Below are positions 996-50,820 of a DNA stretch of 50,820 nucleotides, piece after piece. The number at the start of each line of letters is the position of its first letter. Within the stretch, counting starts at the first letter, position 1. The stretch is from Clostridia bacterium. GTDB lineage: Bacteria > Bacillota > Clostridia > Christensenellales > Borkfalkiaceae. The notes under the pieces are model-generated. The model was not told where the DNA came from. It did no database searches and saw nothing but the letters and a program-made list of their open reading frames with translations. The stretch covers positions 1 through 50,820 of the forward strand of contig JAFVCP010000024.1 in the NCBI GenBank assembly GCA_017479185.1. Direction: 5' to 3'. Made by a program: the position numbers and the translations under genes.

Positions 996-1175
996 TCAGT
1001 TCTTGTCCTTTTTATCTATCGGCTTGCCGTAATTTTCATCGAGTTGGACCCGAAGATTTCCGACGACGCTGTCTATATATTCTCTCCGAAGTTTAGCCTG
1101 TTCGATTTTTTCTTCTTCCGTAAGACCTTCTTCTCGTTGTTTTTTCGCTAAAAAGTTTATTCTTTCGATATTCAT
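996..1175 (-). CDS. DUF896/UPF0291-type small protein (59 aa)
   Basis: Translated by hand: [59 protein letters not shown]. It is below the ORF-track cutoff. Its ATG overlaps the pheT stop (TAATG). Confidence 0.7.
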
Positions 1176-3559
1176 TATCTTAATTCCGCATTATACTTAA
1201 ATTTGAGCGCGCCGAGAATTTTCTTGACCGTCTTATCCACGTCCTCTGCGGTAAGTTGCTTTTCGTCCGACGAGAAAGTAAGCGTATACGCCATACTCTT
1301 TTTGCCGTCGCCGACTTGCGCTCCTTCGTAGACGTCGAAAAGTTCCGCCTTTTTGACTTCCCCTTTCGCCGCCGAAATTATCGCCTGCTCGATCTCTCCG
1401 CAAGTCGTCGCTTTATCGCATACTATAGCGAGATCTCTTATTACGTCGTTGTACTGCGAGATGGGCTTGAACTTAAACTGAACGTCGAATTTCTTTTCGA
1501 GCGCGGTATAATTTATTTCGCAAACGTAAACGTCCTTCTCTATATCGAACGCCGCCGCCGTTTCGTAGGCGACTTTACCGAAAAAGCCTATTTCCTCTCC
1601 GTCCGACAGTATTTTGGCGGAAACGCCGGGGTGGAGATAACTCTTTTCGGCGCGTTCGCTCGCGTCGAATTTAATGCCGAACGCTTCGGCAAGCGTTTCC
1701 ACGACGCCCTTTACGGTAAAGAAATCGTCGTTTTTACCGAAAGCGATAAGGCACAACTTCTTTTCTTCGGTCGGGAAAGAGTCCGTCGGGATATAAGTCC
1801 TCGCGATCTCGAAAAATCTTCCCTCTTCAGCGCCTCTTTTCATATTGAGCGACGCGACGGCGAGCAGAGAAGGAACCAACGTTCTTCTCATTACTTCGTA
1901 GTTGTCGCTTATCGGGTTTTCGATGATTATCGTATTTTTCTCTTCCGCTCCGTCGGGAAGGCAAAGCGCTTCGACGTATTTTTTCGAATAGAACGAATAG
2001 GTCATAGCCTCGTTATATCCGAGTCCCGCAAGAGTTCTCTTGACCTTTAATTCGTCTTTCTGCGATTTATCGTACCCGCCGGCGGTTATCGTCGCGTCTT
2101 TTAAAAGAGTGGGAACTATATGCTCGTATCCGTATACCCTTATAACCTCTTCCGCAAGATCGGCGTATCCCTCGACGTCCTCTCTGTACGGGGGCGCGAC
2201 GGTGGTTATTTTTTCTCCTTCGACTTTAACTTCGAAATTGAGTTTTTTAAGTATACCCACGACGGTTTCCTCGGGTACTTCTATTCCCAAAACGCCGTTG
2301 ATAGCGGAAAAGGTAGTGCTGACGCTCTTATTCTCCTGCTGTTTATGCGCGGAAACGTCGATATGCGTTTTGGTAACTTTACCGGCGTCTAATTGTTCTA
2401 TAAGATGAAGGGCCCTCTTTATCGCCCTTTCGGTCGTATATTCGTCGACGCCTTTTTCGTATCTCTTCGACGAATCGCTGCTCTTTCCGAGTTTCCTCGA
2501 CGAACGCCTTATATTATCTCTCTTGAATTTTGCGCATTCGAACAAAACGTCCTTGGTCGTCTGCTTTATCTCGCTGTTAAGTCCGCCCATTATGCCCGCG
2601 AGAGCGACCGGTTTCGCCCCGTCGCATATAAGCAGGTTCTCGCCGTTTAAAGTCAATTCCTTTTCGTCGAGAGTTACTATCTTTTCGCCCTCTTTCGCCC
2701 TGCGGACTATTATGCTCTTCTTTTCGAGGTCGTTTTTATCGAAAGCGTGCATAGGTTGTCCCATTTCGAGCAGGACGTAATTGGTTATATCGACTATTTT
2801 ATTTATCGAATTGATACCGCAAAGGGCAAGCCTTCTCGTAAGCCACGCGGGAGATCTATCCGTCTTAACATCTTTTACGAGATGAGCGATATATCTCGGA
2901 CAAAGTTCGGGTTCCTCGACGGTAACGCTTATCTCGTCGTCCCCCTCTTCGCTCGCCGTAAACGAAAGATCGGGTTCTTTATAGGGTTTATCGAGCGCGC
3001 AGGCTATCTCCCTCGCGATACCCGCCACGCTTTGACAATCGGGGCGGTTCGCAAGCACGGATATATCGAAAACGTAATCTTTAAGCCCGAGGAGATCTCT
3101 CACTTCCTCTCCGAGGGGAAAATCGTCGTGGAATATAAGCACGCTGTCCCCCGAAGCACCTTCGTAAAAATTATCGTCTATTCCTATCTCCTCTCCGCCG
3201 CAGAACATTCCGAAAGAGTCTTCTCCGCGAAGTTTTCCGTTATATATCCTGTCGCCCGTCGCGAGAGTCGCTCCGTCGACGGCGACGGGAACTATATCTC
3301 CTACTTTTACGTTAGTCGCGTTGGTTATTATCTGCAAACTTCCGTATTTCCCCGCGTCTACCTGACAAATTCTCAATCTTTCGGCGTTAGGGTGTTGTGT
3401 TATTTCCTTTATTTTACAAGTTACTACTTTATCTATTTTATCGCCGTAAGCGATCACCTGTTCGACCTCGAAGCCGCAATCGAACAATTTTTTTTCGAGT
3501 TCTTCCGGCGTTACGTCTATTTCTACGAAATCTTTAAGCCAACTTAAAGGCGCGTTCAT
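1175..3559 (-). CDS. pheT: phenylalanine--tRNA ligase beta subunit
   Basis: 794-aa ORF immediately downstream of pheS, with the bacterial PheT length and domain order (N-terminal tRNA-binding OB region, B3/4, B5, C-terminal anticodon-binding-like part). Confidence 0.95.
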
Positions 3560-3573
3560 ATCCTTTTCTCCTT

Positions 3574-4599
3574 TTAATCCTTGAATTGTCCGAGCGCGCG
3601 AGCGTCGTCTTCGTATAAAACGTGGATATTGTTGATCCCGTTTTTAAGCATCGCTATTCTGTCAAGCCCTAAACCGAAGGCAAATCCCGTGTACTTTTCC
3701 GGATCGACTCCGCAATTTTCCAAAACCTTTCTGTTTACGATGCCGCCGCCTAAGATTTCTATCCAACCCGTTCCCTTACAGAGTTTACAGCCCTTTCCGC
3801 CGCATTCGAAACAACTGACGTCGACCTCGACGGAAGGCTCCGTAAACGGAAAGAAGGAAGGACGAAATCTCGTTTTCGCCGAAGATGAAAACATTTTCTT
3901 TACGAGAACGTCGAGCATTCCCTGAAGGTCGCACATAGTTATCTTTTCGTCGATGGCAAGCCCTTCCATCTGGTGGAACATAGGTGAATGCGTCGCGTCG
4001 TCGTCCGAACGGTATACCCTTCCCGGAACGAGGACTTTAAAGGGCGGTTTAAGGGTTTTCAGACTGTGTATCTGCCCCGGAGAAGTATGCGTGCGAAGCA
4101 TAAGGTCGTCGTTGATATAAAAAGTATCCTGCTTGTCCCTCGCCGGATGCTCTTCGGGGGTATTGAGAGCCGTAAAATTGTGGAAATCGTCCTCGATCTC
4201 CCTCGTTTCGACTACCGAGAAACCCATTCCCGCAAAAATATCCACGAGTTGGTTTTTTACAATCGTAACGGGGTGCAAAGTTCCCGTTTTCGTCCTTTTA
4301 GACGGTCTGGTAATATCTATGGTTTCGGCTTCGTATCTCGCCTTTTTCTCCATTTCGGCTATATACGCTTCTCTCTCCGCTATCGTCTGGTTAGCCCAAT
4401 CTTTCAGCCCGTTTATTATTTGCCCGAGTTTCGGTCTGTCCTCTTTGGACGCCTTTCCGAGTTCTTTCATAAGCGAAGGGATCTCTCCCGTCTTGCCGAT
4501 GACGTACTTGACTTTAAGTTCGTATAAAAGCCTGCTCGTCTTTATTTCGGCAAGTTCTTTTTTTAATCTTTCTTTTATGTCGGCGATCTTGTTTTCCAT
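3574..4599 (-). CDS. pheS: phenylalanine--tRNA ligase alpha subunit
   Basis: 341 aa with class II aaRS motifs (FRPSFFPFTEPS, GFAFGLGLDRIAML). Confidence 0.95.
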   Translation of the reverse strand: MENKIADIKERLKKELAEIKTSRLLYELKVKYVIGKTGEIPSLMKELGKASKEDRPKLGQIINGLKDWANQTIAEREAYIAEMEKKARYEAETIDITRPSKRTKTGTLHPVTIVKNQLVDIFAGMGFSVVETREIEDDFHNFTALNTPEEHPARDKQDTFYINDDLMLRTHTSPGQIHSLKTLKPPFKVLVPGRVYRSDDDATHSPMFHQMEGLAIDEKITMCDLQGMLDVLVKKMFSSSAKTRFRPSFFPFTEPSVEVDVSCFECGGKGCKLCKGTGWIEILGGGIVNRKVLENCGVDPEKYTGFAFGLGLDRIAMLKNGINNIHVLYEDDARALGQFKD

Positions 4600-4925: not shown

Positions 4926-5486
4926 TTATTTTAATTTTAATCCGTCCTTAAACGCGTTTCCCACCTTTTCTCCCAAAACGAGATAAGCGTTATTTACGGG
5001 GTCGAAAGTTATGGGACGGAGCAAAGAAGGATCTATTTTACCGTTTTCTCCGATCACGCTTTCGTCCGCTCCCACGTTGACTATTTCTCCGAACAAAAGC
5101 CCCGTCGACTCGTCGTAAGAAATCAAATTACAGTCGAGAGCCATCGGAAGTTGATCTATTACGGGCGCGTCGACGAATTGACTTTTCGTCGTCGTAAATC
5201 CCGCCCTGTCAAGTTTATCGGCGACTTTATTGGCGGACTCTATTCCGACGTAATCGCACTCCGCCACTTTATCCGCCGTCGCCATACTTACCGTAAACGC
5301 CTTCTTCGCCAAAACGTTCTTTACCGTTTTATGATAAGAACTTAAACACATTACTATTTGATTTTCGTCCGCTATTCCGCCCCAAGCCGCGTTCATCGCG
5401 TCCGCCTTACCGTTTTCGTCGTAAGTCGCGATAATAAACACCGGCTGAGGATAGGTTATAGGTTTCGCTCCGAAATTCTTTCTCAT
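4926..5486 (-). CDS. flavin reductase-like (flavoredoxin-type) FMN-binding protein
   Basis: 186 aa. The N-terminal pattern PVFIIATYDENGKADAMNAAWGG is typical of the flavin reductase-like domain. SD is AAGGAGA. Confidence 0.7.
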   Translation of the reverse strand: MRKNFGAKPITYPQPVFIIATYDENGKADAMNAAWGGIADENQIVMCLSSYHKTVKNVLAKKAFTVSMATADKVAECDYVGIESANKVADKLDRAGFTTTKSQFVDAPVIDQLPMALDCNLISYDESTGLLFGEIVNVGADESVIGENGKIDPSLLRPITFDPVNNAYLVLGEKVGNAFKDGLKLK

Positions 5487-5514
5487 ATCAGATCTCCTTT
5501 TTCTTCTTTATTAT

Positions 5515-5543
5515 ATTTTACATTTTTACTCGATAAAAATCAA
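5515..5543 (-). promoter_or_regulatory. candidate promoter of the flavin reductase-rubredoxin operon
   Basis: On the minus strand: TTGATT (5538-5543), a 17-nt spacer, then TAAAAT (5515-5520). Confidence 0.4.
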
Positions 5544-5574
5544 GCGATTATGAGATTTTCTTGCGTAAAATGAC

Positions 5575-5610
5575 AAATCGGTCGCAGAACTGACAAACTG
5601 CAACCGATTT
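5575..5610 (-). terminator. intrinsic terminator downstream of the DtxR-family gene
   Basis: 13-bp stem (AAAUCGGUUGCAG / CUGCGACCGAUUU). It has a G-U wobble on the minus strand only and is followed by GUCAUUUUAC. Confidence 0.55.
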
Positions 5611-5620
5611 TATGAAGAGT

Positions 5621-5639
5621 TTTAGTTAGTATAAACTAA
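5621..5639. promoter_or_regulatory. DtxR/IdeR-box-like palindrome
   Basis: TTTAGTTAGTATAAACTAA, with inverted arms TTAGTT and AACTAA. By eye it matches 14 of 19 positions of the remembered TTAGGTTAGCCTAACCTAA consensus. Confidence 0.35.
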
Positions 5640-5678
5640 TATCAAGCGAGCCGAAAATTTGTTTCGGGCGGGCGCGTT

Positions 5679-6050
5679 TTAGTTTTTACGCTCGCTCCAA
5701 AACTTTTTCAGAACTTCAAAAAGTTCGTCCGAAACCACGTGCTCCATTCTGCAAGCGTTTTCCTCGGCTATGTCCGAAGGGGCGCCGACCATTTTTAACA
5801 AGTCGGTCAGAACGCAATGCCTTTCGTAGGTGCTTTCCGCCCTCTCTCTGCCTTTTTCGGTAAACTCTATTTCGTTCGCCTTATTAAGGTAGATATAACC
5901 GTCGGCTTGCATCTTCTTTACGGCGTTGGACACGCTCGGTCTTGAAAACCCGAGTTCGGTCGCAACGTCCGTCGCTTTTACCCTGGCGCCTCGCCTGTGC
6001 AGAAGCAATATGGTTTCGAGATACATTTCCTTGGATTCGGAATTATTCAT
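5679..6050 (-). CDS. DtxR/MntR-family metal-dependent transcriptional regulator
   Basis: Winged-helix N-terminus (VATELGFSRPSVSNAVKKMQADGYI) plus a dimerisation/metal domain (ERHCVLTDLL...ACRMEHV). I chose the start at MNNSESK (GGAGGG SD). The ORF track extends to 6086. Confidence 0.8.
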   Translation of the reverse strand: MNNSESKEMYLETILLLHRRGARVKATDVATELGFSRPSVSNAVKKMQADGYIYLNKANEIEFTEKGRERAESTYERHCVLTDLLKMVGAPSDIAEENACRMEHVVSDELFEVLKKFWSERKN

Positions 6051-6114
6051 ATACCCTCCGCCATCATTGTTAGCGTATGCTGACAAGTTTATTTTAACAG
6101 ATATTTTTATATTT

Positions 6115-8127
6115 TTAATTGAGCGCCACGTCCTTTAATTTTTCGTATTTTTCCATAGCGACGCTCTTTATCGACGAAATATAGTCGGGAAGCCCGAACG
6201 CTTCGTCGCAAAGCCGTTTAGCGAAGAATATAACGGACGGAGAATAGACGAGCGAGCCGAGATCGTTCATAAATCTTCCGCTTTGTCTCGTACCCATAAA
6301 ATCGCCGCCGCCTCTCGTTTCGAAATCCTTTTCGGCGATAGCGAATCCGTCCGAATTTTCACACATTATTTTAAGTCTTTCGATCGCTTTTTCGTCGGTC
6401 GTACCCGTATAGAGAAAACAGTAACTTTTATCTCCGCCTCTGCCTACCCTTCCGCGAAGTTGGTGAAGTTGTGAAAGACCGAATCTCTCGGCGTTATAAA
6501 TGACCATAACCGTCGCGTTGGGAACGTCTATTCCGACCTCTACGACAGTCGTGGAAACGAGAAGATCGAATTTCTTGTCCTTAAAATCCTGCATTACGGC
6601 AGCCTTTTCGGCGTCTTTCATCTTCCCGTGAAGAAGAGCCGTCCTAACTCCCGTAAGCCTCGAAGTCAATTCTTCGTAAAGTTCGGTAACGCTCATAAGC
6701 GTACCTTCTTCGTCCTCTTCTATCTTCGGACAAACGCAGAACGCTTGTCTGCCGCTTTTTACCGTATCTCTTATAAATCCGAGCATATTGTCGTACTTGA
6801 TCTCGGGAACTATATTCGTCTGTACTTTTTGCCTCGATTTGGGTTTGTCCTTTATTTCGGTTATGTCGAGATCGCCGTAAAATATAAGAGAAATGGTTCT
6901 CGGTATCGGCGTTGCGCTCATTACGAGTACGTCCGGGATCATTCCCTTCGCGACCAACGCGCTTCTTTGCTGAACGCCGAAACGGTGTTGTTCGTCGCAT
7001 ACGCACACCGACAAATTATAAAATTCCACGTCGCCGGATAAAACCGCGTGAGTTCCGACTGCGATCTTCGCCTCTCCGCTTTTGAGTTTCGCCTTTATCT
7101 CTCTCTTTTCGGCAGTCTTTAAACTGCCGCTTAAAAACACTACTTCGTACTCGGGGAAAAGCCTCTTGACTATATTATAATTCTGTTCGGCAAGGATCTC
7201 GGTCGGGGCGAGCATCGCTCCCTGATAGCCGCTTTTTACCGCTATATATAAAGCGCAAAGCGCGACGGCGGTCTTTCCGCTTCCGACGTCCCCCTGCAAA
7301 AGTCTGTTCATAGAACTGTTTCCCGTCATATCGGAATAAATTTCGTTTACCGCTTTTTTTTGCCCTTCGGTAAACTCGAACCCGAAACGCTCGGTAAAGG
7401 CGCGAAGATCTTCCGCTTTCGTCGCGTATTGATTGATCCTTATCTGTCTGCGATCTCCCTTTATGAATTTAAACGCCGAGATGAGCAAAAAATACTCTTC
7501 TGTCGCAATTCTTTCCGACGCCGTCTTTTTAGCCTGCATCGACGACGGAGAATGAGCCTCGCGATAAGCCGCTCCGAGATCGGAAAGCGAATATTTTTTC
7601 CTCAAAGCGGCGGGGATGTTATCCTTTATTTCGGTTTTTATAAGCGCGTTCGCGATACAATCCCTGACGACTTTTTGCGTCAGATTGCCTTTAAGCGAAT
7701 AAACGGGAACGATCCCTTTAAGCCTTACGTTATTGTCCACCCGTTCAAATGACGGACTGCTCATCGTTATTCCGCCGAAATCTATCTTTATTCTGCCGTA
7801 AAAAAGATAGTCTTCGCCCGGTTTTAACTGTTTTACGACGTAAGGCTGATTAAACCAGATAACGCTGAAACGCCTGCCGTTTTGTTCGACTACCGCCGTA
7901 ACGCACTTTATTCTCCGAGCGGAAACGAAAGTCCTCGGCGCGGTCATCAACCTGCCGTAAGTCAAAACGACGTCGTTGTTATAACAATTTTCAAGTGGCG
8001 TAACGTCGGTAAGATCGAGATAATTGCGAGGAAAATGTCTGATAAGGTCCTCTGCCGAAAATATCCCCATCTTGTTGAAATCGCTTTCTCTTTTATCGCT
8101 CACGCCTTTTATTTCTTTCAATTCCAT
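6115..8127 (-). CDS. recG: ATP-dependent DNA helicase RecG
   Basis: 670 aa with Walker A GDVGSGKT, DEQH box (CDEQHRFG), SATPIPRT, and an N-terminal wedge/OB region. Confidence 0.95.
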   Translation of the reverse strand: MELKEIKGVSDKRESDFNKMGIFSAEDLIRHFPRNYLDLTDVTPLENCYNNDVVLTYGRLMTAPRTFVSARRIKCVTAVVEQNGRRFSVIWFNQPYVVKQLKPGEDYLFYGRIKIDFGGITMSSPSFERVDNNVRLKGIVPVYSLKGNLTQKVVRDCIANALIKTEIKDNIPAALRKKYSLSDLGAAYREAHSPSSMQAKKTASERIATEEYFLLISAFKFIKGDRRQIRINQYATKAEDLRAFTERFGFEFTEGQKKAVNEIYSDMTGNSSMNRLLQGDVGSGKTAVALCALYIAVKSGYQGAMLAPTEILAEQNYNIVKRLFPEYEVVFLSGSLKTAEKREIKAKLKSGEAKIAVGTHAVLSGDVEFYNLSVCVCDEQHRFGVQQRSALVAKGMIPDVLVMSATPIPRTISLIFYGDLDITEIKDKPKSRQKVQTNIVPEIKYDNMLGFIRDTVKSGRQAFCVCPKIEEDEEGTLMSVTELYEELTSRLTGVRTALLHGKMKDAEKAAVMQDFKDKKFDLLVSTTVVEVGIDVPNATVMVIYNAERFGLSQLHQLRGRVGRGGDKSYCFLYTGTTDEKAIERLKIMCENSDGFAIAEKDFETRGGGDFMGTRQSGRFMNDLGSLVYSPSVIFFAKRLCDEAFGLPDYISSIKSVAMEKYEKLKDVALN

Positions 8128-25209: not shown

Positions 25210-26460
25210 CTATTGATGAGGTATGTTAATCCTATCCGCGAAACCGATAAATAAGGGTATTTTTGCAGTCCTGTCCATAACGGCGTACGCGAAAGGTCTG
25301 TCGAGATAAATATACTTTATTTCGTTGTCGGGCGGAGCCGAAGTTCCGTTCGCGCCTCCAATGGTTACCGCCGCCGCTTTGGTTCCCTTTCTCGAAACCT
25401 CTATCCTCGTCTTTTGCAGAACGAAATCGAGATAACAATCCGTCGATACGCCGTCGAGTTCGGCAAGCCCCGGGACAAAAGCCCTCTTTAAACCGAGAGT
25501 TTGAAGCCCGTCGTTCATAAAACAAGTCGACGCGTCGTTAAATTCGGGGATCTTCGCAACTATTTGCGCGTGTTTTCTCTGCGAATACCCTTCGCAAAAA
25601 TCTTTCCCCGAAGTTTTTTCAAACCACTCCGAAGCGGTTTGCCCCGCGGCGGGTAAAATGCCGACGAAAGAATAACCGTCGTCTTTATATGGTTTTTCAA
25701 AGCAATCGGCTCCGTTTACCGAGAAGTAAACCGATTCGGCAGATATCATCATTTCGACTTCTTGTTTGCTTCCGTCAAAAGCGGTAAAGATTCCCGAGCG
25801 AATAGCGTCGTTTTCATATTCCTTTTTCCAAGCGCTTTCAAAATAAAGGGCGTTGACGATATACGCGAGCGCTTGCGGATCGATCTCGTCGAGTATCTTA
25901 TCTATCATACCCTTGGTTTTATTGTTTACCCAATTATTTATATCCCGCAAAGTGTTTCCGTCGAAAGCAGAAGAATATATTTCCGAATTATAATAGCCTT
26001 TGACCGCCCTTAAAAAATCCTCTTTGGGATCGGCGCTCCCTTCCCTTAACCAAAGGGAGTCGGCGACTTTTACCGTGTCGCTTTCGGCTGCTTCTCCTAT
26101 GAGCGAAGCGAAGATCCCGTCGATTTTCGCCTTATCCATACCGCCTAAAAGACCGTTGAATTGGTCGAGAGTTTCGCCGCTTGCGCCGCAAGCGATCATA
26201 TTGAGGCACGCGAGGGCGGAAAACGGAGAGAACAAAAAGGAATTCGCCCCATTAGTCTGCGTTTTCATAAAATCGAACGCGAACTCGTCGTAAAACTCTG
26301 AAAAAAGGTCGTCGGGTTGAAATTTGTCTGTTTCCGCGACCGGGATATTCGCCGTCAATTCTTTCGACGATATCTGCTTTTCGACGTATATTCCGCAGGA
26401 CGACGCTAAAAAGCACGCCGCTATCGAAATAACCACTACCGTTTTTTTGAAAAATTTCAT
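25210..26460 (-). CDS. serpin-family protease inhibitor, predicted lipoprotein
   Basis: 416 aa. Lipobox FLASSC, serpin N-terminal pattern FSPFSALACLNMIACGASGETL, hinge/RCL RKGTKAAAVT, and C-terminal DRPFAYAVMD...PLFIG. Confidence 0.85.
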   Translation of the reverse strand: MKFFKKTVVVISIAACFLASSCGIYVEKQISSKELTANIPVAETDKFQPDDLFSEFYDEFAFDFMKTQTNGANSFLFSPFSALACLNMIACGASGETLDQFNGLLGGMDKAKIDGIFASLIGEAAESDTVKVADSLWLREGSADPKEDFLRAVKGYYNSEIYSSAFDGNTLRDINNWVNNKTKGMIDKILDEIDPQALAYIVNALYFESAWKKEYENDAIRSGIFTAFDGSKQEVEMMISAESVYFSVNGADCFEKPYKDDGYSFVGILPAAGQTASEWFEKTSGKDFCEGYSQRKHAQIVAKIPEFNDASTCFMNDGLQTLGLKRAFVPGLAELDGVSTDCYLDFVLQKTRIEVSRKGTKAAAVTIGGANGTSAPPDNEIKYIYLDRPFAYAVMDRTAKIPLFIGFADRINIPHQ

Positions 26461-45376: not shown

Positions 45377-46957
45377 TTATTCGCTGACCTCGAAACTTTC
45401 AAGATAAGTTTCAAACGCGGAAGCGTCGCTCTCGCTCATTTGTCCGAGCATTGTTTTTGCGACTGCCTTAACGGTTTCCGAAGTCGCTTCGAACTCGTAG
45501 AAGGTTTCTTTATCCTCGTCGGAAGCGGCGTTATAATCTTTTTCGGTTTCGGTTGCGTTTATAAGATATACATAAGATCTGTAATTCGAATCGCTGTAAA
45601 CCACCGCGACGTAATCGTTTCCGCCTACGGTAAACGCTTCGGGCGCGTACCAGGAAGTGTCGATCGATATCTTATTGAGTCTTACCTCTTTCGCGTTTTC
45701 TTCTTTAATATTTACGCGATAAACGTTATTAGATTCGGTGAAATAGAGATAATCCCCGTTTACGCTTAAAATATTCGCGGTTTTAGCGGTTTCGGAATAA
45801 TACAAAGTTTTTACGCCGAAATCGGTATTTTCATCGTTTCTCGCATTAAAATCGTATTTCAAAATGCCGTAAGTCGAATCGACGAAAATAATACAGTCTT
45901 TCGAAAGGATATAAGACGAACTTCCGAAAATAGAACTTGCGTTCTTATCCCCGTAATTTATTATAGCGTTTTTGGCGTTAGCCCAGGTTTCTTTGCTGTC
46001 GGAAGCGATCTTATCGTCGTCGAGAGCAACGTAGAAAGTTCCGCCGACCGTCGTGTCGAGCGAAGTATACGAGAAATACAAAACTCCGTCTTTATGCTTT
46101 AAAAGATCTATCGTAACTCCCGTGAATCCCTCTCCGTCGCCGGAAAGTTCCTTGCCGATATCTTTATCCGCCGTTACGATATATTTGCCTGCTCCGCTCA
46201 AAACGATCTCGTCTTTGACTTCGTTTCCGAACACTACTTTATGAACGTCCTGATAACTTACCTGACGAGCCTCGGAACTGTCCTCGTCGTAAAGGTTGGT
46301 ATTTACGGGTTTGACCGTAAAATACACGCTGTCGGAAGTTCCGTTATCGTCGAAGAGAACTTCGTCTATGGTTTTTTCATACGAATAAACCTGTTTACAA
46401 CTTTCGGCGTCGTAGACGTAAAGGGACTCGCTGTAAACCGCGAGATAAACTTTATCGCCGCTCTTTAAATATCTGAAAGTCGCGTCGTTTGCGAAATCGA
46501 CGTTCGCTATCTTCGAAGAAGTCGAAGTTCCGTCGAGTTTAGTACGGAAGAAATTGAGTTTATCGTTCTTAACGCTTCCTTTACTGTCTTTTTCTTCCGA
46601 GGGAACGGCGTAATAAACGTAATCCCCGTAAATATAAACTCCCGCCGTTTTATCTCCGGAAACCAAAAGTTTGGAAACGACTATCTCGCTCTTTCCTTCG
46701 GGATCGGCGACGTCGCTCTTCTTTACGCGAGCAAGAGCGCCTTTTACGACCTCTCCGGTCTTATATGCCGTAGAATAACTTTCAACGCCGTTTATAAAGT
46801 AAACGTAGTCGCCCGTTTCGACGAGCGCTCCGCCGTTGGACGCGACGGCGGAGCCTGTCGTATCCATATCTACCTTAACGTTCCCGCCGCCGCAAGAGGC
46901 AAGCGCGAACGCAAGACACAATACCGCTAAAACACATAAAAACTTTTTTGCCATCAT
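45377..46957 (-). CDS. lipoprotein with repeated beta-propeller-like (DUF5050-type) motifs
   Basis: Signal peptide with lipobox ALASC. Recurrent YVYF/YVYY/LYFT motifs (GDYVYFING, GDYVYYAV, GVLYFSY, GDYLYFTE). Confidence 0.7.
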   Translation of the reverse strand: MMAKKFLCVLAVLCLAFALASCGGGNVKVDMDTTGSAVASNGGALVETGDYVYFINGVESYSTAYKTGEVVKGALARVKKSDVADPEGKSEIVVSKLLVSGDKTAGVYIYGDYVYYAVPSEEKDSKGSVKNDKLNFFRTKLDGTSTSSKIANVDFANDATFRYLKSGDKVYLAVYSESLYVYDAESCKQVYSYEKTIDEVLFDDNGTSDSVYFTVKPVNTNLYDEDSSEARQVSYQDVHKVVFGNEVKDEIVLSGAGKYIVTADKDIGKELSGDGEGFTGVTIDLLKHKDGVLYFSYTSLDTTVGGTFYVALDDDKIASDSKETWANAKNAIINYGDKNASSIFGSSSYILSKDCIIFVDSTYGILKYDFNARNDENTDFGVKTLYYSETAKTANILSVNGDYLYFTESNNVYRVNIKEENAKEVRLNKISIDTSWYAPEAFTVGGNDYVAVVYSDSNYRSYVYLINATETEKDYNAASDEDKETFYEFEATSETVKAVAKTMLGQMSESDASAFETYLESFEVSE

Positions 46958-47148: not shown

Positions 47149-47508
47149 ATGGAGAAATTCGGTCTTTTCGACCTTATAGAAAAATTTAACGCCTCGGCTA
47201 AAGGTAAAAACGATTTATCTCAGGCGCGTTCCGTCGACGATAACGTTCAAGCAAAAAACAAAAGCGATCTTTTAAGATCCATAAACGTTCCCGCGCAATA
47301 CGCGATGAACAAAAAAATGGAAGATTTTATAAACAAACACGACGCGATCTCTTTGCAAATAGACAAAAACCTTACCAAGACAAAAAAAAGAGGGCGGCCG
47401 CCGAAAAAACGCGAAGAAAAAATTGCGCAACCGAACGAAAAACTTTCCCCTTCTCAACGCAAAAAAAAGAACGCTTTATCCGCAAAACCTAAAAAAACGA
47501 GCGAATAG
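47149..47508 (+). CDS. small lysine-rich protein with an AT-hook-like KKRGRPPKKR motif
   Basis: 119-aa ORF with AAGGAG SD and a terminator downstream. No family recognised. Confidence 0.6.
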   Translation: MEKFGLFDLIEKFNASAKGKNDLSQARSVDDNVQAKNKSDLLRSINVPAQYAMNKKMEDFINKHDAISLQIDKNLTKTKKRGRPPKKREEKIAQPNEKLSPSQRKKKNALSAKPKKTSE

Positions 47509-47667: not shown

Positions 47668-47925
47668 TCATTTTTTTAAAATGGAAAAAAGCCCTTTCTT
47701 TTCATATTGTTCTTCGCTTACGGAAAGAACTTTATAGCCCGTTTCTTCTATCGCTCTCTTTACGGCGTCGAGGTCTATTTCGTTATCGAGAATGATCTCC
47801 GTTAAACCCTTTGTGTGAGAGGACGAAACCTTTTTCACGTTCGCCGTTCTTCTGACCGCGTCGTTGACGTGAGCCTCGCACATTCCGCACGACATTCCGT
47901 CCACCTTTAAAATTATTTTTTTCAT
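47668..47925 (-). CDS. heavy-metal-associated (HMA) domain protein, CopZ-like with a C-terminal extension
   Basis: 85 aa with GMSCGMCEAH (MxCxxC). SD is AGGAGA. Confidence 0.8.
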   Translation of the reverse strand: MKKIILKVDGMSCGMCEAHVNDAVRRTANVKKVSSSHTKGLTEIILDNEIDLDAVKRAIEETGYKVLSVSEEQYEKKGLFSILKK

Positions 47926-48042: not shown

Positions 48043-48071
48043 TTGATAACCTCGTCTTTTTATGATATAAT
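48043..48071 (+). promoter_or_regulatory. near-consensus extended -10 promoter ending 6 nt before the macrodomain ATG
   Basis: TTGATA (48043-48048), a 17-nt spacer, then TGaTATAAT (48063-48071). The ATG is at 48078 and there is no SD. Confidence 0.6.
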
Positions 48072-48077
48072 TTGTAT

Positions 48078-48863
48078 ATGGAACAAAAAGAGAGAAGAGA
48101 ATATTTAATAAATTATCTCCTTAAAGAAGGGGGATACGACGCGCCCGTTCCTAAAAGCGAGATCGAAGAAAAAAGGCTTTTGCGTTCGCTGTTTAACGTT
48201 AGAATGCCGAATGCCGCGAGCGAAGAGTTTTTAAAGATACAGGACGAATATCTACACGTGGAAATTGCGAAAAAAGGGATCACGGATTGCGAAAAACTGA
48301 CCTATACGCGGGGATTGACAGTTTGGCAGGGAGATATTACCACCTTAAAGGCAGACGGTATCGTAAACGCCGCGAACTCCCAAATGCTCGGCTGTTTTGC
48401 TCCTTGCCACGCCTGTATCGACAACGCTATCCACACCTTCGCCGGAATACGGTTACGAAAAGAGTGCTATGATATAATGCGTCGTCAACGGACGGAAGAG
48501 CCTACCGGAAGCGCGAAAATAACCAAGGCGTATAACCTTCCGAGCAAGTTCGTTTTACACACCGTCGGACCGATAGTTTCCGATAAACTTACCGAAAAGC
48601 ATAAAGAACAACTCGCGTCGTGTTACAGATCCTGTCTTGCGCTTGCGAAAGAATACGGCTTAAGATCTCTCGCGTTTTGTTGTATTTCGACGGGGGAATT
48701 TCATTTCCCGAACAAAGAAGCCGCCGAAATAGCGGTGTCGACGGTTTCGGATCTCCTCGAAAAAGATAATTACGAAATGAAAGTAATATTCAACGTTTTT
48801 AAGGATACCGATCTTGAAATTTACCAAAAACTCCTCGCGGAGAGGGCGGGAGAAAATTTATGA
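48078..48863 (+). CDS. protein-ADP-ribose hydrolase, zinc-type macrodomain (SirTM-associated class)
   Basis: Macro core (WQGDITTLKADGIVNAANSQMLGCFAPCHACIDNAIHTFAG ... CCISTGEF) with an N-terminal helical extension. Start taken at the ATG rather than the track's TTG at 48072. Confidence 0.8.
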   Translation: MEQKERREYLINYLLKEGGYDAPVPKSEIEEKRLLRSLFNVRMPNAASEEFLKIQDEYLHVEIAKKGITDCEKLTYTRGLTVWQGDITTLKADGIVNAANSQMLGCFAPCHACIDNAIHTFAGIRLRKECYDIMRRQRTEEPTGSAKITKAYNLPSKFVLHTVGPIVSDKLTEKHKEQLASCYRSCLALAKEYGLRSLAFCCISTGEFHFPNKEAAEIAVSTVSDLLEKDNYEMKVIFNVFKDTDLEIYQKLLAERAGENL

Positions 48864-49786
48864 TAATTTCAACGGGAATGAGAACAGATATACCCGCTTT
48901 TTATTCCGATTGGTTTTTAAATAGAATAAAAGAGGGCTTCGTTTTGGTAAGAAACCCCTACTATTATCATCAGGTAACGAGATACGCATTAAACCCGGAG
49001 ATAGTCGATTGTATAACTTTTTGCACGAAAAACCCCGCGCCCATTTTGCCGAGGCTGAACGAACTTAACGCTTACAGACAGTTTTGGTTTATAACCATAA
49101 CTCCTTACGGTAAAAATATAGAACCGCGCGTTCCCGATAAAAATTCGGTCATAGACGCGTTTAAAATCATTTCGGAACGGGTCGGACCGAAAGCGATAGG
49201 TTGGCGATACGATCCCGTTTTTTACGGAGAAGGATTTAATGAAGAAAAACACCTCGAAGCCTTCCGAAAAATCGCCGAAAAGTTAAAAGGGTATACCGAT
49301 TCGTGCGTTTTGAGTTTTCTCGACCTGTACGAAAAGGTCAAACGCAACGCGCCCGGCATTTATTCTCCCGACGCGGAAGAACAAAGATCTTTGGGTAAAA
49401 AACTCGCCGAAATAGCAAGGGAAAACGGTATCACCATAAGGACTTGCTGCGAGGGAACTCATCTGAAAGAATACGGAATAGACGTTTCGGGTTGTCAGAC
49501 GAGATCGGTTATCGAAAGAGCGATCGGCATTACCCTCGACGTTCCCGTTAAACGCAGCCAAAGAAGCGTTTGCGATTGTCTGCTCGGAAACGATATAGGG
49601 TGTTACGATAGTTGCGGACACCTCTGCAAATACTGTTACGCTAACGCCGACGCAAAAAACGTCTTAAACAATATGAAAAGACACGACGACAGATCCCCTT
49701 TTTTGGTAGGCAACCTCGAAAAGGACGACGTTATAACCGAGGCGAAACAAAAAAGTTTTGCAAATTTACAGACAAGTTTATTTTAA
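48860..49786 (+). CDS. DUF1848-family protein with a C-terminal Cys cluster (putative Fe-S)
   Basis: 308 aa. The N-terminus MIISTGMRTDIPAFYSDWFLNRI is typical of DUF1848. Cys cluster: CDCLLGNDIGCYDSCGHLCKYCYAN. There is an ATGA overlap with the macro gene. Confidence 0.7.
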   Translation: MIISTGMRTDIPAFYSDWFLNRIKEGFVLVRNPYYYHQVTRYALNPEIVDCITFCTKNPAPILPRLNELNAYRQFWFITITPYGKNIEPRVPDKNSVIDAFKIISERVGPKAIGWRYDPVFYGEGFNEEKHLEAFRKIAEKLKGYTDSCVLSFLDLYEKVKRNAPGIYSPDAEEQRSLGKKLAEIARENGITIRTCCEGTHLKEYGIDVSGCQTRSVIERAIGITLDVPVKRSQRSVCDCLLGNDIGCYDSCGHLCKYCYANADAKNVLNNMKRHDDRSPFLVGNLEKDDVITEAKQKSFANLQTSLF

Positions 49787-49835
49787 AACGATGAATACAT
49801 AGGTTTAAACCGGAAAACGAATAAGGAGATCTATA

Positions 49836-50702
49836 ATGGAAGAAATAAACTTAAACGACAAAATAGAAAGAACGGTAAAAGTATTACGGGAAGCCGACGC
49901 CGTTATCGTCGGAGCGGGCGCGGGGCTTTCGACCTCCGCGGGATTTTCATACAGCGGAAAAAGATTTCACGAAAATTTCCACGATTTCGAAATGAAATAC
50001 GGATTTAAAGATATGTATTCGGGCGGCTTTTATCCTTACGACACACCCGAAGAAACGTGGGCGTATTGGTCGCGATACGTTTATATAAATCGCTATACAG
50101 ACGCTCCAAAACCCGCCTATAAGAGGCTTTTCGGCATAATTAAAGATAAAAATTATTTCGTTCTGACCACTAACGTCGATCATTGTTTTCAGAAAAACGG
50201 GTTCGATAAGGAAAGGCTATTTTACACGCAAGGCGATTACGGTCTTTTTCAATGCAGTAAGCCCTGTCATAAAAAGACCTACGATAACGAAGAGATAATA
50301 AAGGAAATGTACGCGCGGCAAAAAGATATGAAAATACCGAGCGAACTTATCCCCGTATGCCCCGTTTGCGGTAGACCGATGAGTATGAATTTACGCTCCG
50401 ACGACACCTTCGTAGAGGACGAAGGATGGCGTAAAGCAAGCCAAAGATACGAGGCTTTTATCAAAAAACACGCGAAAGGAAAGGTCGTATTTTTGGAACT
50501 CGGCGTGGGCGGAAATACGCCCGTCATTATAAAATATCCCTTTTGGAGAATGACCTACGCCAACGAAAACGCAACTTACGTCTGCGTAAACTACGGAGAA
50601 GCCGCTTGTCCGGAACAAATCGCCGATCGGTCTATTTGTCTGAATTCGGATATTGGCGAAATCCTCTCCCTCGTCGAAAATAAGATCAAAAAAAGTATTT
50701 GA
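49836..50702 (+). CDS. class M sirtuin (SirTM-like, SIR2 family)
   Basis: 288 aa with VGAGAGLSTSAGF, TTNVDH, CSKPCH...CPVCG zinc site and LELGVG. It aligns by eye along its length with streptococcal SirTM as I remember it. SD is AAGGAG. Confidence 0.8.
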   Translation: MEEINLNDKIERTVKVLREADAVIVGAGAGLSTSAGFSYSGKRFHENFHDFEMKYGFKDMYSGGFYPYDTPEETWAYWSRYVYINRYTDAPKPAYKRLFGIIKDKNYFVLTTNVDHCFQKNGFDKERLFYTQGDYGLFQCSKPCHKKTYDNEEIIKEMYARQKDMKIPSELIPVCPVCGRPMSMNLRSDDTFVEDEGWRKASQRYEAFIKKHAKGKVVFLELGVGGNTPVIIKYPFWRMTYANENATYVCVNYGEAACPEQIADRSICLNSDIGEILSLVENKIKKSI

Positions 50703-50707
50703 ATAAA

Positions 50708-50728
50708 AAAGCGGCATCTCGCCGCTTT
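50708..50728 (+). terminator. first hairpin after the sirtuin gene
   Basis: AAAGCGGC-atctc-GCCGCTTT. The following U-run is weak. Confidence 0.45.
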
Positions 50729-50753: not shown

Positions 50754-50796
50754 GGTCGTTTCTACCATTCGGTAAAAACGACCGTTTTTATTTTTT
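50754..50796 (+). terminator. second, stronger terminator after the sirtuin gene
   Basis: GGTCGTTT (50754-50761) pairs with AAACGACC (50776-50783), followed by GTTTTTATTTTTT. Confidence 0.6.
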
Positions 50797-50820
50797 ATAA
50801 GCAAATCGCTCTATAACCTC

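Follow-up and report, generated by a model that had tools for sequence, protein, structure and literature searches.

What does a protein of the DUF1848 family do between the two enzymes of a reversible ADP-ribosylation system? The question is raised by the window (the whole stretch of DNA analysed, 50,820 nt), where a DUF1848 gene stands between the genes for a zinc-dependent macrodomain (Zn-Macro) and a class-M sirtuin (SirTM). The extended operon of Staphylococcus and Streptococcus comprises the genes for GcvH-L, Zn-Macro and SirTM plus LplA2, with OYE and LLM genes nearby, and GcvH-L is the sole SirTM substrate known to the field (PMC11490716). Independent minimal operons of SirTM and Zn-Macro have already been defined (Rack 2015, PMC4518038; Ariza 2024, PMC11490716), with examples in Enterococcus faecalis, Treponema pedis and MorMacro (PMC4518038, PMC11490716); the targets of such lone pairs are stated as unknown in the literature (PMC11490716, PMC4518038). 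The preliminary description of the locus proposed that it would be a new wiring of this system.

Organization of the operon and its two ADP-ribosylation enzymes

The ORF listing of the window places the macro, DUF1848 and SirTM genes in the same direction on the + strand, and they form a single operon with the following features.

48043–48071, + strand: sigma-70-type promoter; −35 TTGATA (48043–48048), 17-nt spacer, extended TG, −10 TATAAT (48066–48071)
48078–48863, + strand: zinc-dependent macrodomain (Zn-Macro), protein-ADP-ribose hydrolase, 261 aa; assigned from Pfam, NCBIfam and structures
48860–49786, + strand: DUF1848 protein, 308 aa; PF08902, E = 1.1e-98; translationally coupled to the macro gene (ATGA)
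49823–49828, + strand: AAGGAG ribosome-binding site of the SirTM gene, read from the sequence, 7 nt before the SirTM ATG
49836–50702, + strand: class-M sirtuin SirTM, predicted ADP-ribosyltransferase, 288 aa; assigned from the 5a3a match and motifs
50708–50728, no strand assigned: first hairpin 3′ of the operon; −12.7 kcal/mol, z −4.5
50754–50796, + strand: second hairpin (50754–50783) and U-run, ending at 50796; −20.4 kcal/mol, z −5.5, then GUUUUUAUUUUUU

The promoter showed 11 of 12 consensus matches plus the extended TG in a consensus scan; promoter-like sites across the region are not in excess (4 found vs. 5.5 expected from shuffling). Both hexamers are conserved in the orthologous locus L168, where the ATG likewise follows after 6 nt. 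A leaderless mRNA is probable, since the −10 box ends 6 nt before the macro ATG, and direct reading of the sequence upstream of 48078 revealed no Shine–Dalgarno sequence. The listed macro ORF starts at TTG 48072, directly against the −10 box, which leaves ATG 48078 as the credible start. The macro stop and the DUF1848 start overlap in ATGA (48860–48863), and the sirtuin gene has its own AAGGAG in the 49-nt spacer (49787–49835) that follows DUF1848; both had been described before and were found again in the sequence. The U tail of the first hairpin is weak on the + strand but better on the − strand, where the hairpin is listed as terminator-like. The second is likely the intrinsic terminator of the operon, common to the convergent downstream gene, and positions 50788–50820 match L168 at the 3′ end of its convergent HAD-hydrolase gene. 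The earlier view of three co-directional genes as one unit, with a near-consensus promoter before it and two hairpins after it, is thus upheld.

The macro protein matched Pfam Macro (E = 2e-38), the NCBIfam protein-ADP-ribose hydrolase equivalog NF003163 (356.3 bits, cutoff 272) and the Zn-Macro structure 8rsi (E = 5e-83), as well as the Zn-Macro structures of S. aureus and S. pyogenes. The motifs that define Zn-Macros (PMC11490716) are present: NAAN (N97–N100), the Cx4HxC Zn-loop (C106-FAPC-H111-A-C113) and the Dx3H dyad (D115-NAI-H119). Alignments to 8rsi and 5kiv begin at residues 2–3, and about 75 residues precede the macro fold; because the 8rsi alignment starts at residue 2, it covers the three-helix bundle that is predicted to form the N-terminal extension. 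The proposed membership in the zinc-containing, SirTM-linked class agrees with NF003163, 8rsi, the Zn-loop and the aligned extension.

The sirtuin aligned over residues 9–283 with the S. pyogenes SirTM structure 5a3a (E = 5.2e-73). It features QG (Q132–G133) instead of the catalytic HG, and its N113, Q132 and R187 align with Spy N118, Q137 and R192, the roles of which are known from PMC4518038. These residues, G133 and the Zn-ribbon cysteines C140, C144, C175 and C178 are invariant across 13 homologs. Pfam SIR2 gave no match at E 0.01 and NCBIfam gave weak CobB-type matches, as expected because class M is divergent. Profile searches therefore returned the Macro and DUF1848 families named in the preliminary description but not SIR2, and the class-M assignment of the 288-aa sirtuin, which also stood, comes from 5a3a, the QG motif, the catalytic Asn and Arg and the invariant residues. 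The two genes are linked within one promoter-to-terminator unit with one gene between them, and their products are predicted to make up a module of reversible protein mono-ADP-ribosylation, with SirTM as the NAD-dependent writer and the zinc macrodomain as the hydrolytic eraser.

The operon is surrounded by a housekeeping chromosomal region (pheST, recG, secA, RNase G). In a Pfam census of 44 ORFs over the 50 kb window, neither GCV_H nor BPL_LplA_LipB was among the matches listed (to E 1e-11 to 1e-15). Among the same listed matches there was no reverse transcriptase, methylase or integrase near the operon, and no PNPOx-Fer4, nitroreductase or other redox gene of the sister loci in the window. 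The reported absence of GcvH-L and LplA2 is thus true within these 50 kb, but the new wiring is not, as lone SirTM/Zn-Macro operons had already been described. Judged by sequence, the module of the window is orthologous to such a lone-pair operon. The closest SirTM relative lies in L168, in a locus of HMA, macro and SirTM genes without DUF1848, where the latter two genes are 5 nt apart and the 49-nt spacer has no counterpart. The window and the minimal operon have the two enzymes in common, with every catalytic motif that was tested, and both lack GcvH-L and LplA. The minimal operon has two genes only, as L168 does, whereas the window adds DUF1848 between them, and in other genomes surveyed here DUF1848 flanks the pair. 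The macro–DUF1848–SirTM order is specific to the lineage of the window.

The DUF1848 protein as a putative Fe-S enzyme

The DUF1848 protein matched PF08902 with 330.7 bits (gathering score 30.5) over profile positions 1–262 of 262. It features a C-terminal cysteine cluster (CxC...CX3CX2C-Y-A-N). The six-Cys cluster of the preliminary description is present, with the spacing CDC-x7-C-x3-C-x3-C-x2-C rather than x8 after CDC, and its fourth Cys, C248, is not conserved in an alignment of 16 DUF1848 sequences. The invariant cysteines of this alignment are C55, C196, C212, C238, C240, C252, C256 and C259; the last three form the CX3CX2C motif (C252-GHL-C256-KY-C259), which is located C-terminally, not N-terminally. 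The AF2 model (pLDDT 86, pTM 0.88) shows an alternating beta/alpha structure with weak Foldseek matches (TM ~0.3) to TIM barrels, DesII and TigE among them, and no sequence relative was found in the PDB.

The CX3CX2C motif, in which an aromatic residue precedes the last Cys, the barrel-like alternating beta/alpha model and the existence of a DUF1848-TcmP fusion (TIGR04474, 2.3e-50) resemble radical-SAM (PF04055) and three-Cys-motif (TcmP) proteins. DUF1848 differs from radical-SAM proteins in the C-terminal position of the motif and in the lack of a close solved structure and of any PF04055 match to the native sequence, even at a maximum E of 10. Because the motif sits at the C-terminus, the canonical radical-SAM layout may be circularly permuted in this protein; a circularly permuted sequence matched PF04055 at E = 0.0018 (18.9 bits, below the cutoff of 29.5). 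From the Cys motif and this sub-threshold match we infer that DUF1848 is a putative radical-SAM-type Fe-S enzyme that would be sensitive to oxygen. The family amounts to 4166 clusters at 50% identity.

Recurrence of the linkage across genomes

The neighbourhoods of DUF1848 were surveyed in 80 species-representative genomes with homologs of at least 51% identity, the closest 80 of roughly 590 or more matches, and those of SirTM likewise in the 80 closest relatives from roughly 590 or more; the resulting proportions thus hold for this subfamily only. SirTM and/or Zn-Macro adjoin DUF1848 in 20 of the closest 80 genomes, in 19 of them within ~0.7 kb. The adjacency is therefore not a one-off, as the preliminary description had allowed, and the partnership is recurrent in many gut and rumen bacteria. 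By our own estimate (3 kb target, 3 Mb genome), simple chance would give about 0.1 of 80, and the 19 genomes exceed it roughly 200-fold. Unsupervised clustering of 1151 neighbouring ORFs identified SirTM and macro as the two commonest families, after DUF1848 itself, within two genes. The link is facultative: 60/80 DUF1848 loci have neither SirTM nor macro in their flanks, and DUF1848 is present in 4 and absent in 76 of the closest 80 SirTM loci.

The order DUF1848–macro–SirTM was found in about 10 loci, macro–SirTM–DUF1848 in about 12, a reversed SirTM gene followed by macro–DUF1848 in one distinct locus (L003, L004 and L014 represent a single contig) and macro–DUF1848–SirTM in the window only, among the loci surveyed. 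Since the order varies, selection on proximity is argued for rather than shared ancestry. The linked genes are tightly coupled by ATGA overlaps or gaps of 2–25 nt; linked DUF1848 sequences are dispersed over the NJ tree, and linked SirTMs require at least 11 parsimony changes on the SirTM tree. These trees indicate that, within Clostridia and Treponema, the union of DUF1848 with the writer/eraser pair has arisen and been dissolved many times. The link of DUF1848 to SirTM/Zn-Macro is new, with no mention in the accessible literature, including PMC4518038 and PMC11490716.

A fortuitous adjacency with no functional link could account for an order confined to one lineage and for partners mostly found apart, but the excess over chance, at least four gene orders, the repeated changes on the SirTM tree and the translational coupling make it extremely improbable. 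It is also very unlikely that DUF1848 takes a product of the pair as its substrate or cofactor, be it ADP-ribose, a residue that carries it or a compound derived from NAD; this corresponds to the second of the two roles offered in the preliminary description. Adjacency alone speaks for this metabolic coupling, together with the fact that radical-SAM-type enzymes frequently act on nucleoside or ribose substrates. With 60/80 loci lacking the pair, however, the DUF1848 substrate cannot depend on it, and no NAD or ADP-ribose metabolism genes recurred beside DUF1848 among the 1151 ORFs.

Four pairs of related loci differ solely by the presence or absence of one module, with breakpoints at gene ends.

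Window vs. L168: 75–77% nt identity
L170 vs. L171: 96.5% nt identity
L173 vs. L172: 81% nt identity
L008 vs. L009: 84.5% nt identity

Strain-level presence or absence of the macro–SirTM pair between flanks 96.5% identical would suit a mobile or conflict cassette, a DarT/DarG-type toxin–antitoxin or defence system in which DUF1848 would be a nucleic-acid-modifying radical enzyme that, together with the pair, targets DNA, RNA or an invader instead of a redox protein of the cell. DUF1848 also matched the PADLOC model RTasDUF1848 (E = 6.8e-39), filed under DRT (defence-associated reverse transcriptases), and a DUF1848 cluster is reported to adjoin UG25 methylase-RT fusions (PMC9226505). Another DUF1848 subfamily resides on an integrase/MobA element, where it overlaps with a gene of methyltransferase type; the TcmP fusion and the match of SirTM to the phage family phrog_2162 (E = 6.5e-40) point the same way. 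However, SirTM and macro match no PADLOC defence model, linked loci adjoin redox enzymes rather than defence genes, and DUF1848 is rare in phage (8 records) and plasmid (6 records) entries. The window shares with DRT UG25 the Pfam family of an accessory gene (PMC9226505; RTasDUF1848) and differs in subfamily and context, the listed matches of its housekeeping region holding no integrase, reverse transcriptase or methylase. DarT/DarG, in which DNA ADP-ribosylation is reversed by a macrodomain, is likewise a two-gene writer/eraser cassette of patchy, mobile distribution, but SirTM is unrelated in sequence to DarT, and the locus of Eubacterium minutum, which survives with SirTM kept and macro truncated, is hard to square with a lethal toxin. 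Such a cassette is considered unlikely.

DUF1848 as a candidate client of the ADP-ribosylation switch

Our preferred reading, tentative and based on genomic context, is that the switch has a facultative client in DUF1848, a putative radical-SAM-like Fe-S enzyme. When oxidative or electrophile stress sets in, DUF1848 or a complex containing it would be ADP-ribosylated by SirTM; this would silence the enzyme or shield its sulfur cofactor, and on recovery the macrodomain would take off the mark. The fuller claim, that DUF1848 of anaerobes from gut and rumen is the first SirTM substrate outside GcvH-L and that its Fe-S activity or cluster is switched or shielded and then restored by the zinc macrodomain, is rather doubtful.

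The usual company of the SirTM/Zn-Macro pair comprises Fe-S and flavin proteins and HxlR- and Rrf2-type regulators: PNPOx-Fer4 in 28/76 loci, HxlR in 29–31/76, nitroreductase in 14/76 and acgM in 13/76, compared with DUF1848 in 4/80. This Fe-S/flavin/HxlR context fits a redox-stress role of the pair and parallels the OYE and LLM flavoenzymes of the canonical operon (PMC11490716). It also suits a co-regulated passenger: DUF1848 would be a stress or repair enzyme of the same HxlR/Rrf2-type redox-stress unit, never ADP-ribosylated, and SirTM would act on another protein, such as the PNPOx-ferredoxin fusion, the nitroreductase, the ACGX peptide system or some housekeeping protein. The first three are commoner neighbours of the pair and equally good target candidates. 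In L172 and L173 a nitroreductase operon ends with DUF1848, and in L170 and L171 DUF1848 comes after Rrf2 and SnoaL genes, in both cases with or without macro–SirTM. Moreover, no residue cleanly separates SirTM-linked from unlinked DUF1848 (best column, Fisher p = 5.6e-5, uncorrected over 308 columns), so nothing points to an acceptor site that has evolved to be modified. On the other side, the window operon consists of macro, DUF1848 and SirTM without other redox genes; the placing of DUF1848 between writer and eraser, with translational coupling, is more than the joining of a regulon; and, seen from DUF1848, SirTM and macro are far commoner neighbours than any redox gene. Co-regulation alone is a serious possibility, nearly as likely as the client reading.

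As a client, DUF1848 would resemble the extended operon in being a dedicated operon-encoded protein with a redox-sensitive, here putative, sulfur cofactor; flavin oxidoreductases in related loci and the oxidative-stress logic are further likenesses (PMC11490716, PMC12440151). In S. aureus, ADP-ribosylation guards the GcvH-L lipoyl sulfur from oxidation (PMC12440151). The differences are the lack of GcvH-L or a lipoate ligase in the 50 kb window, the facultative linkage and the nature of the client, a lipoyl carrier there and a candidate Fe-S-type, TIM-barrel-like enzyme of ~300 aa here.

Reversible mono-ADP-ribosylation by DraT/DraG switches the nitrogenase Fe protein off and on. That system is similar in acting on an oxygen-sensitive Fe-S enzyme, as DUF1848 is predicted to be, and in that only some organisms with the enzyme have the regulator pair. 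It differs in employing an ART-fold writer and an ARH-fold eraser instead of a sirtuin and a macrodomain, and its target was established experimentally, whereas the candidate target of the present system is proposed from genomic context.

The locus and its relatives supply several operon-encoded target candidates: DUF1848 is one, and sister loci add the PNPOx-ferredoxin fusion, the nitroreductase and the ACGX peptide/radical-SAM system. They also provide a first functional handle on DUF1848, a family of thousands of clusters with no structure and essentially no literature. If DUF1848 is a substrate, it would be, after nitrogenase, the second Fe-S enzyme under reversible ADP-ribosylation, by a control that evolved independently, and an entry to the reaction of a family of >4000 clusters; if co-regulation alone applies, the result is a modest refinement of annotation. 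The linked genes are carried by the cultured strains Roseburia sp. 831b and Eubacterium minutum ATCC 700079, and the question of DUF1848 as a target is therefore directly testable.

Organization of the operon and its writer and eraser proteins

The macrodomain, DUF1848 and sirtuin genes form one co-directional unit with the following features:

48043–48071, + strand, promoter TTGATA-17-TATAAT with extended TG (consensus scan)
48078–48863, + strand, macrodomain protein, 261 aa (ORF calling)
48860–49786, + strand, DUF1848 protein, 308 aa; its start codon and the macro stop codon overlap (ATGA)
49836–50702, + strand, sirtuin, 288 aa (ORF calling)

A 49-nt spacer precedes the sirtuin gene, with AAGGAG seven bases ahead of its ATG. 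Two stable hairpins lie 3′ of this gene, the second having a stability of −20.4 kcal/mol and being followed by a U-run. The organism, represented by a metagenome-assembled genome, has a GC-content of 43.8%. These analyses of ORFs, promoter and hairpins bear out the preliminary description of the unit. The macro ATG sits six bases after the end of the −10 box and no Shine-Dalgarno sequence was found ahead of it (48043–48080); hence, judging from the sequence, the transcript is probably leaderless. The same promoter hexamers and distance to the macro ATG are kept in L168 (590–625), an orthologous locus without DUF1848.

The macro protein clears the NCBI equivalog model for protein-ADP-ribose hydrolase (356 bits, cutoff 272), and the nearest structures are solved zinc macrodomains (8rsi, E 5e-83). 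It possesses the NAAN motif, Cx4HxC zinc loop and Dx3H dyad, which are defining features of the Zn-Macro subfamily (PMC11490716). The sirtuin matches SirTM of S. pyogenes (E 5e-73) and features QG in place of HG, together with the catalytic Asn and Arg, all three being invariant in homologs; Asn and Arg are required for ADP-ribosyl transfer (PMC4518038). The middle protein matches the complete DUF1848 domain (E 1e-98). The families initially assigned to the three proteins are thus upheld by profile and structure matches and by motifs. Recombination with a macro-DUF1848-type locus was considered as a source of the window's macro C-terminus; the 3′ segment of macro genes is less conserved everywhere and speaks neither for nor against this. 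The SirTM of the window (49836–50702) also matches phrog_2162 (Sir2, E 6.5e-40), a family of phage proteins; phages therefore carry SirTM-like genes too.

Recurrence of the DUF1848 association

The DUF1848 survey comprised 80 loci, one genome per species, with DUF1848 51–72% identical to that of the window. Both this and the SirTM survey represent the best 80 of roughly 590 or more matches, and their percentages therefore hold for this subfamily only. Within the best 80, SirTM and/or Zn-macro genes were found beside DUF1848 in 20 loci, in 19 of them within about 0.7 kb. Label-free clustering of 1151 neighbouring ORFs, called by a simple longest-ORF heuristic, ranked SirTM and macro highest among the families no more than two genes away from DUF1848. 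The association is found far more often than expected by chance, the chance expectation being a rough estimate; a one-off adjacency is ruled out by the 20 linked loci, and chance adjacency is a highly improbable explanation of the operon. Among the 80 closest metagenomic SirTM loci, the macro gene is directly upstream of SirTM in 68 and DUF1848 is present in just 4.

The order of the genes varies. DUF1848-macro-SirTM occurs in about 10 loci, macro-SirTM-DUF1848 in about 12, and SirTM divergent from macro-DUF1848 was also found; macro-DUF1848-SirTM is seen in the window only, among the loci compared. In neighbour-joining trees, computed without support values, linked and unlinked DUF1848 sequences are interleaved, and the SirTM tree calls for a minimum of 11 changes to account for linkage to DUF1848.

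The closest SirTM among the matches listed belongs to L168 (78% amino acid identity). This locus is collinear with the window at 75–77% nucleotide identity from the divergent HMA gene through macro and SirTM into the beginning of the convergent gene downstream, and 5 nt separate macro from SirTM, with DUF1848 absent. The writer/eraser operon of the window has acquired a DUF1848 gene. Three further pairs of loci have DUF1848 in both members: L170/L171 (96.5% nucleotide identity), L173/L172 (81%) and L008/L009 (84.5%), the first two also sharing genes upstream of it. The members of all three pairs part just past the DUF1848 stop codon, where macro-SirTM follows in one member only. L168 and these pairs indicate that the DUF1848 and macro-SirTM modules have repeatedly been joined and separated at gene boundaries. 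Such exchange could be accommodated by a mobile conflict cassette; the PADLOC and PHROGs comparison returned no defence model matched by SirTM or macro, and we consider this reading unlikely.

Several individual arrangements were recorded. The window carries a divergent gene for an 85-aa HMA protein (CopZ-like, GMSCGMCE; 47668–47925, − strand), whose promoter (47985–47957, − strand) is a perfect 12/12 consensus. The HMA/macro arrangement is kept in L168 (80% amino acid identity) but was absent from the remaining ~170 loci compared; in the window, 36 nt are inserted between the divergent promoters of the two genes. In locus L054 (9135–10924), DUF1848 is preceded at 14 nt by a less closely related SirTM-like gene (42% identity), and no macrodomain occurs in the 10 kb upstream or the 5 kb downstream. 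Cultured Eubacterium minutum ATCC 700079 (L062, CP016202.1, 10001–12080) encodes DUF1848, an 84-aa macro remnant and an intact SirTM. The remnant is the N-terminal three-helix bundle of Zn-macro only, the macrodomain being deleted, which leaves a writer without an eraser.

Lone SirTM/Zn-macro pairs and their surroundings

Neither GcvH-L nor LplA2 is encoded within the 50 kb window according to Pfam searches of its ORFs, and tblastn with an approximate E. coli GcvH query found nothing (E 0.35), a result of low weight. SirTM/Zn-macro pairs have already been described as independent operons, with their targets stated as unknown (PMC4518038, PMC11490716), and the lack of GcvH-L and LplA2 beside the pair is not unusual. 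The interpretation offered at first holds for the protein families, the absence of both genes from the window and the recurring DUF1848 link, but the wiring as a lone pair is not new.

Other redox genes usually precede the pair in these Clostridia. Ahead of it, 28 of 76 lone-pair loci contain a PNPOx-like/4Fe-4S ferredoxin fusion, 14 a nitroreductase, and 13 an ACGX-repeat peptide gene (acgA) with its radical-SAM/SPASM maturase (acgM); a divergent HxlR-type regulator is found near the pair in 29–31 of the 76. Many pairs thereby close a cluster of the order HxlR (−), acgA, acgM, nitroreductase, PNPOx-like+4Fe-4S, macro, SirTM, with or without DUF1848. Cultured Roseburia sp. 831b (L174, NZ_CP135163.1, 222–5942) carries the whole series, ending with macro, SirTM and DUF1848 (RefSeq annotation), and the acgA-to-SirTM type also occurs in L076, L043, L157, L126, L109 and other loci. 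None of these accessory genes is present in the window, and no literature was found on the ACGX system or its link to the pair.

The window is a housekeeping region (pheST, recG, secA, RNase G). A T-box leader ahead of pheST is common in Firmicutes; the Rfam scan found none upstream of pheS-pheT (1175–4599, − strand), and no RNA family at gathering thresholds over the whole 50 kb. A tRNA scan of 1–50820 detected no tRNA genes. A 119-aa lysine-rich protein (47149–47508, + strand) and a 526-aa predicted lipoprotein with a signal ending in ASCGG (45377–46957, − strand) match no Pfam family at E 0.01. A bacterial serpin (25210–26460, − strand; Pfam Serpin, 4.2e-64) features a lipoprotein-type signal and the YLDRPFAY signature.

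The DUF1848 protein and its candidate role

DUF1848 has eight cysteines that do not vary across 16 homologs, and the final three form CX3CX2C followed by Y-A-N; a cysteine spacing previously given as x8 was miscounted and is x7. Sequence comparison with the PDB revealed no relative of solved structure. The AF2 model is confident (pLDDT 86, pTM 0.88) and features an alternating beta/alpha barrel-like fold, for which the fold search against the PDB returned generic TIM barrels only (TM about 0.3), radical-SAM DesII and TigE included. No Radical_SAM (PF04055) match was obtained in the native residue order; with the C-terminal 79 residues put first, a sub-threshold match spans the junction (E 0.0018), faintly hinting that DUF1848 may have a circularly permuted radical-SAM layout. 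We regard action of DUF1848 on an ADP-ribose-derived substrate, also suggested at the outset, as quite improbable.

We tentatively propose that DUF1848 may be a facultative client of SirTM/Zn-macro ADP-ribosylation. Under oxidative or electrophile stress, SirTM would ADP-ribosylate DUF1848, which would silence the protein or protect its sulfur cofactor, and Zn-macro would then take the ADP-ribose off again. Lipoyl-GcvH-L provides one analogy (PMC12440151), and DraT/DraG with nitrogenase a second. Nearly as likely, DUF1848 would merely be co-regulated and the true SirTM target would be another protein. No residue cleanly separates SirTM-linked from unlinked DUF1848. The locus puts forward testable candidate targets of lone SirTM/Zn-macro pairs, DUF1848 among them, and offers an initial lead to the function of DUF1848.

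The DUF1848 family comprises 4166 clusters at 50% identity. The literature on it is very sparse, with nothing found on function, and none was found for PF08902 or for SirTM or SIR2/macro neighbourhoods with radical SAM. One DUF1848 cluster has been reported to neighbour UG25 reverse transcriptases (PMC9226505), and the PADLOC model for it also matches the DUF1848 of the window. A fusion of DUF1848 to a PcrA/UvrD Tudor domain (P0254), considered as a DNA-repair clue, was discarded as a probable assembly or gene-calling artefact, since it occurs on a single contig and its closest relatives (96–98% identity) are ordinary 313-aa proteins. Other subfamilies are found on mobile elements together with methyltransferase-like partners. 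A distinct one (45% identity; L175/L176, Anaerobutyricum hallii-type, 5093–6942) resides on an integrase/MobA-MobL element and overlaps an upstream gene for a 303-aa Cys-rich methyltransferase-like protein, an arrangement found in >2000 index blocks. In other proteins, the fusion partner of DUF1848 is TcmP (P0298, TIGR04474, 2.3e-50) or a GNAT domain (P0291).
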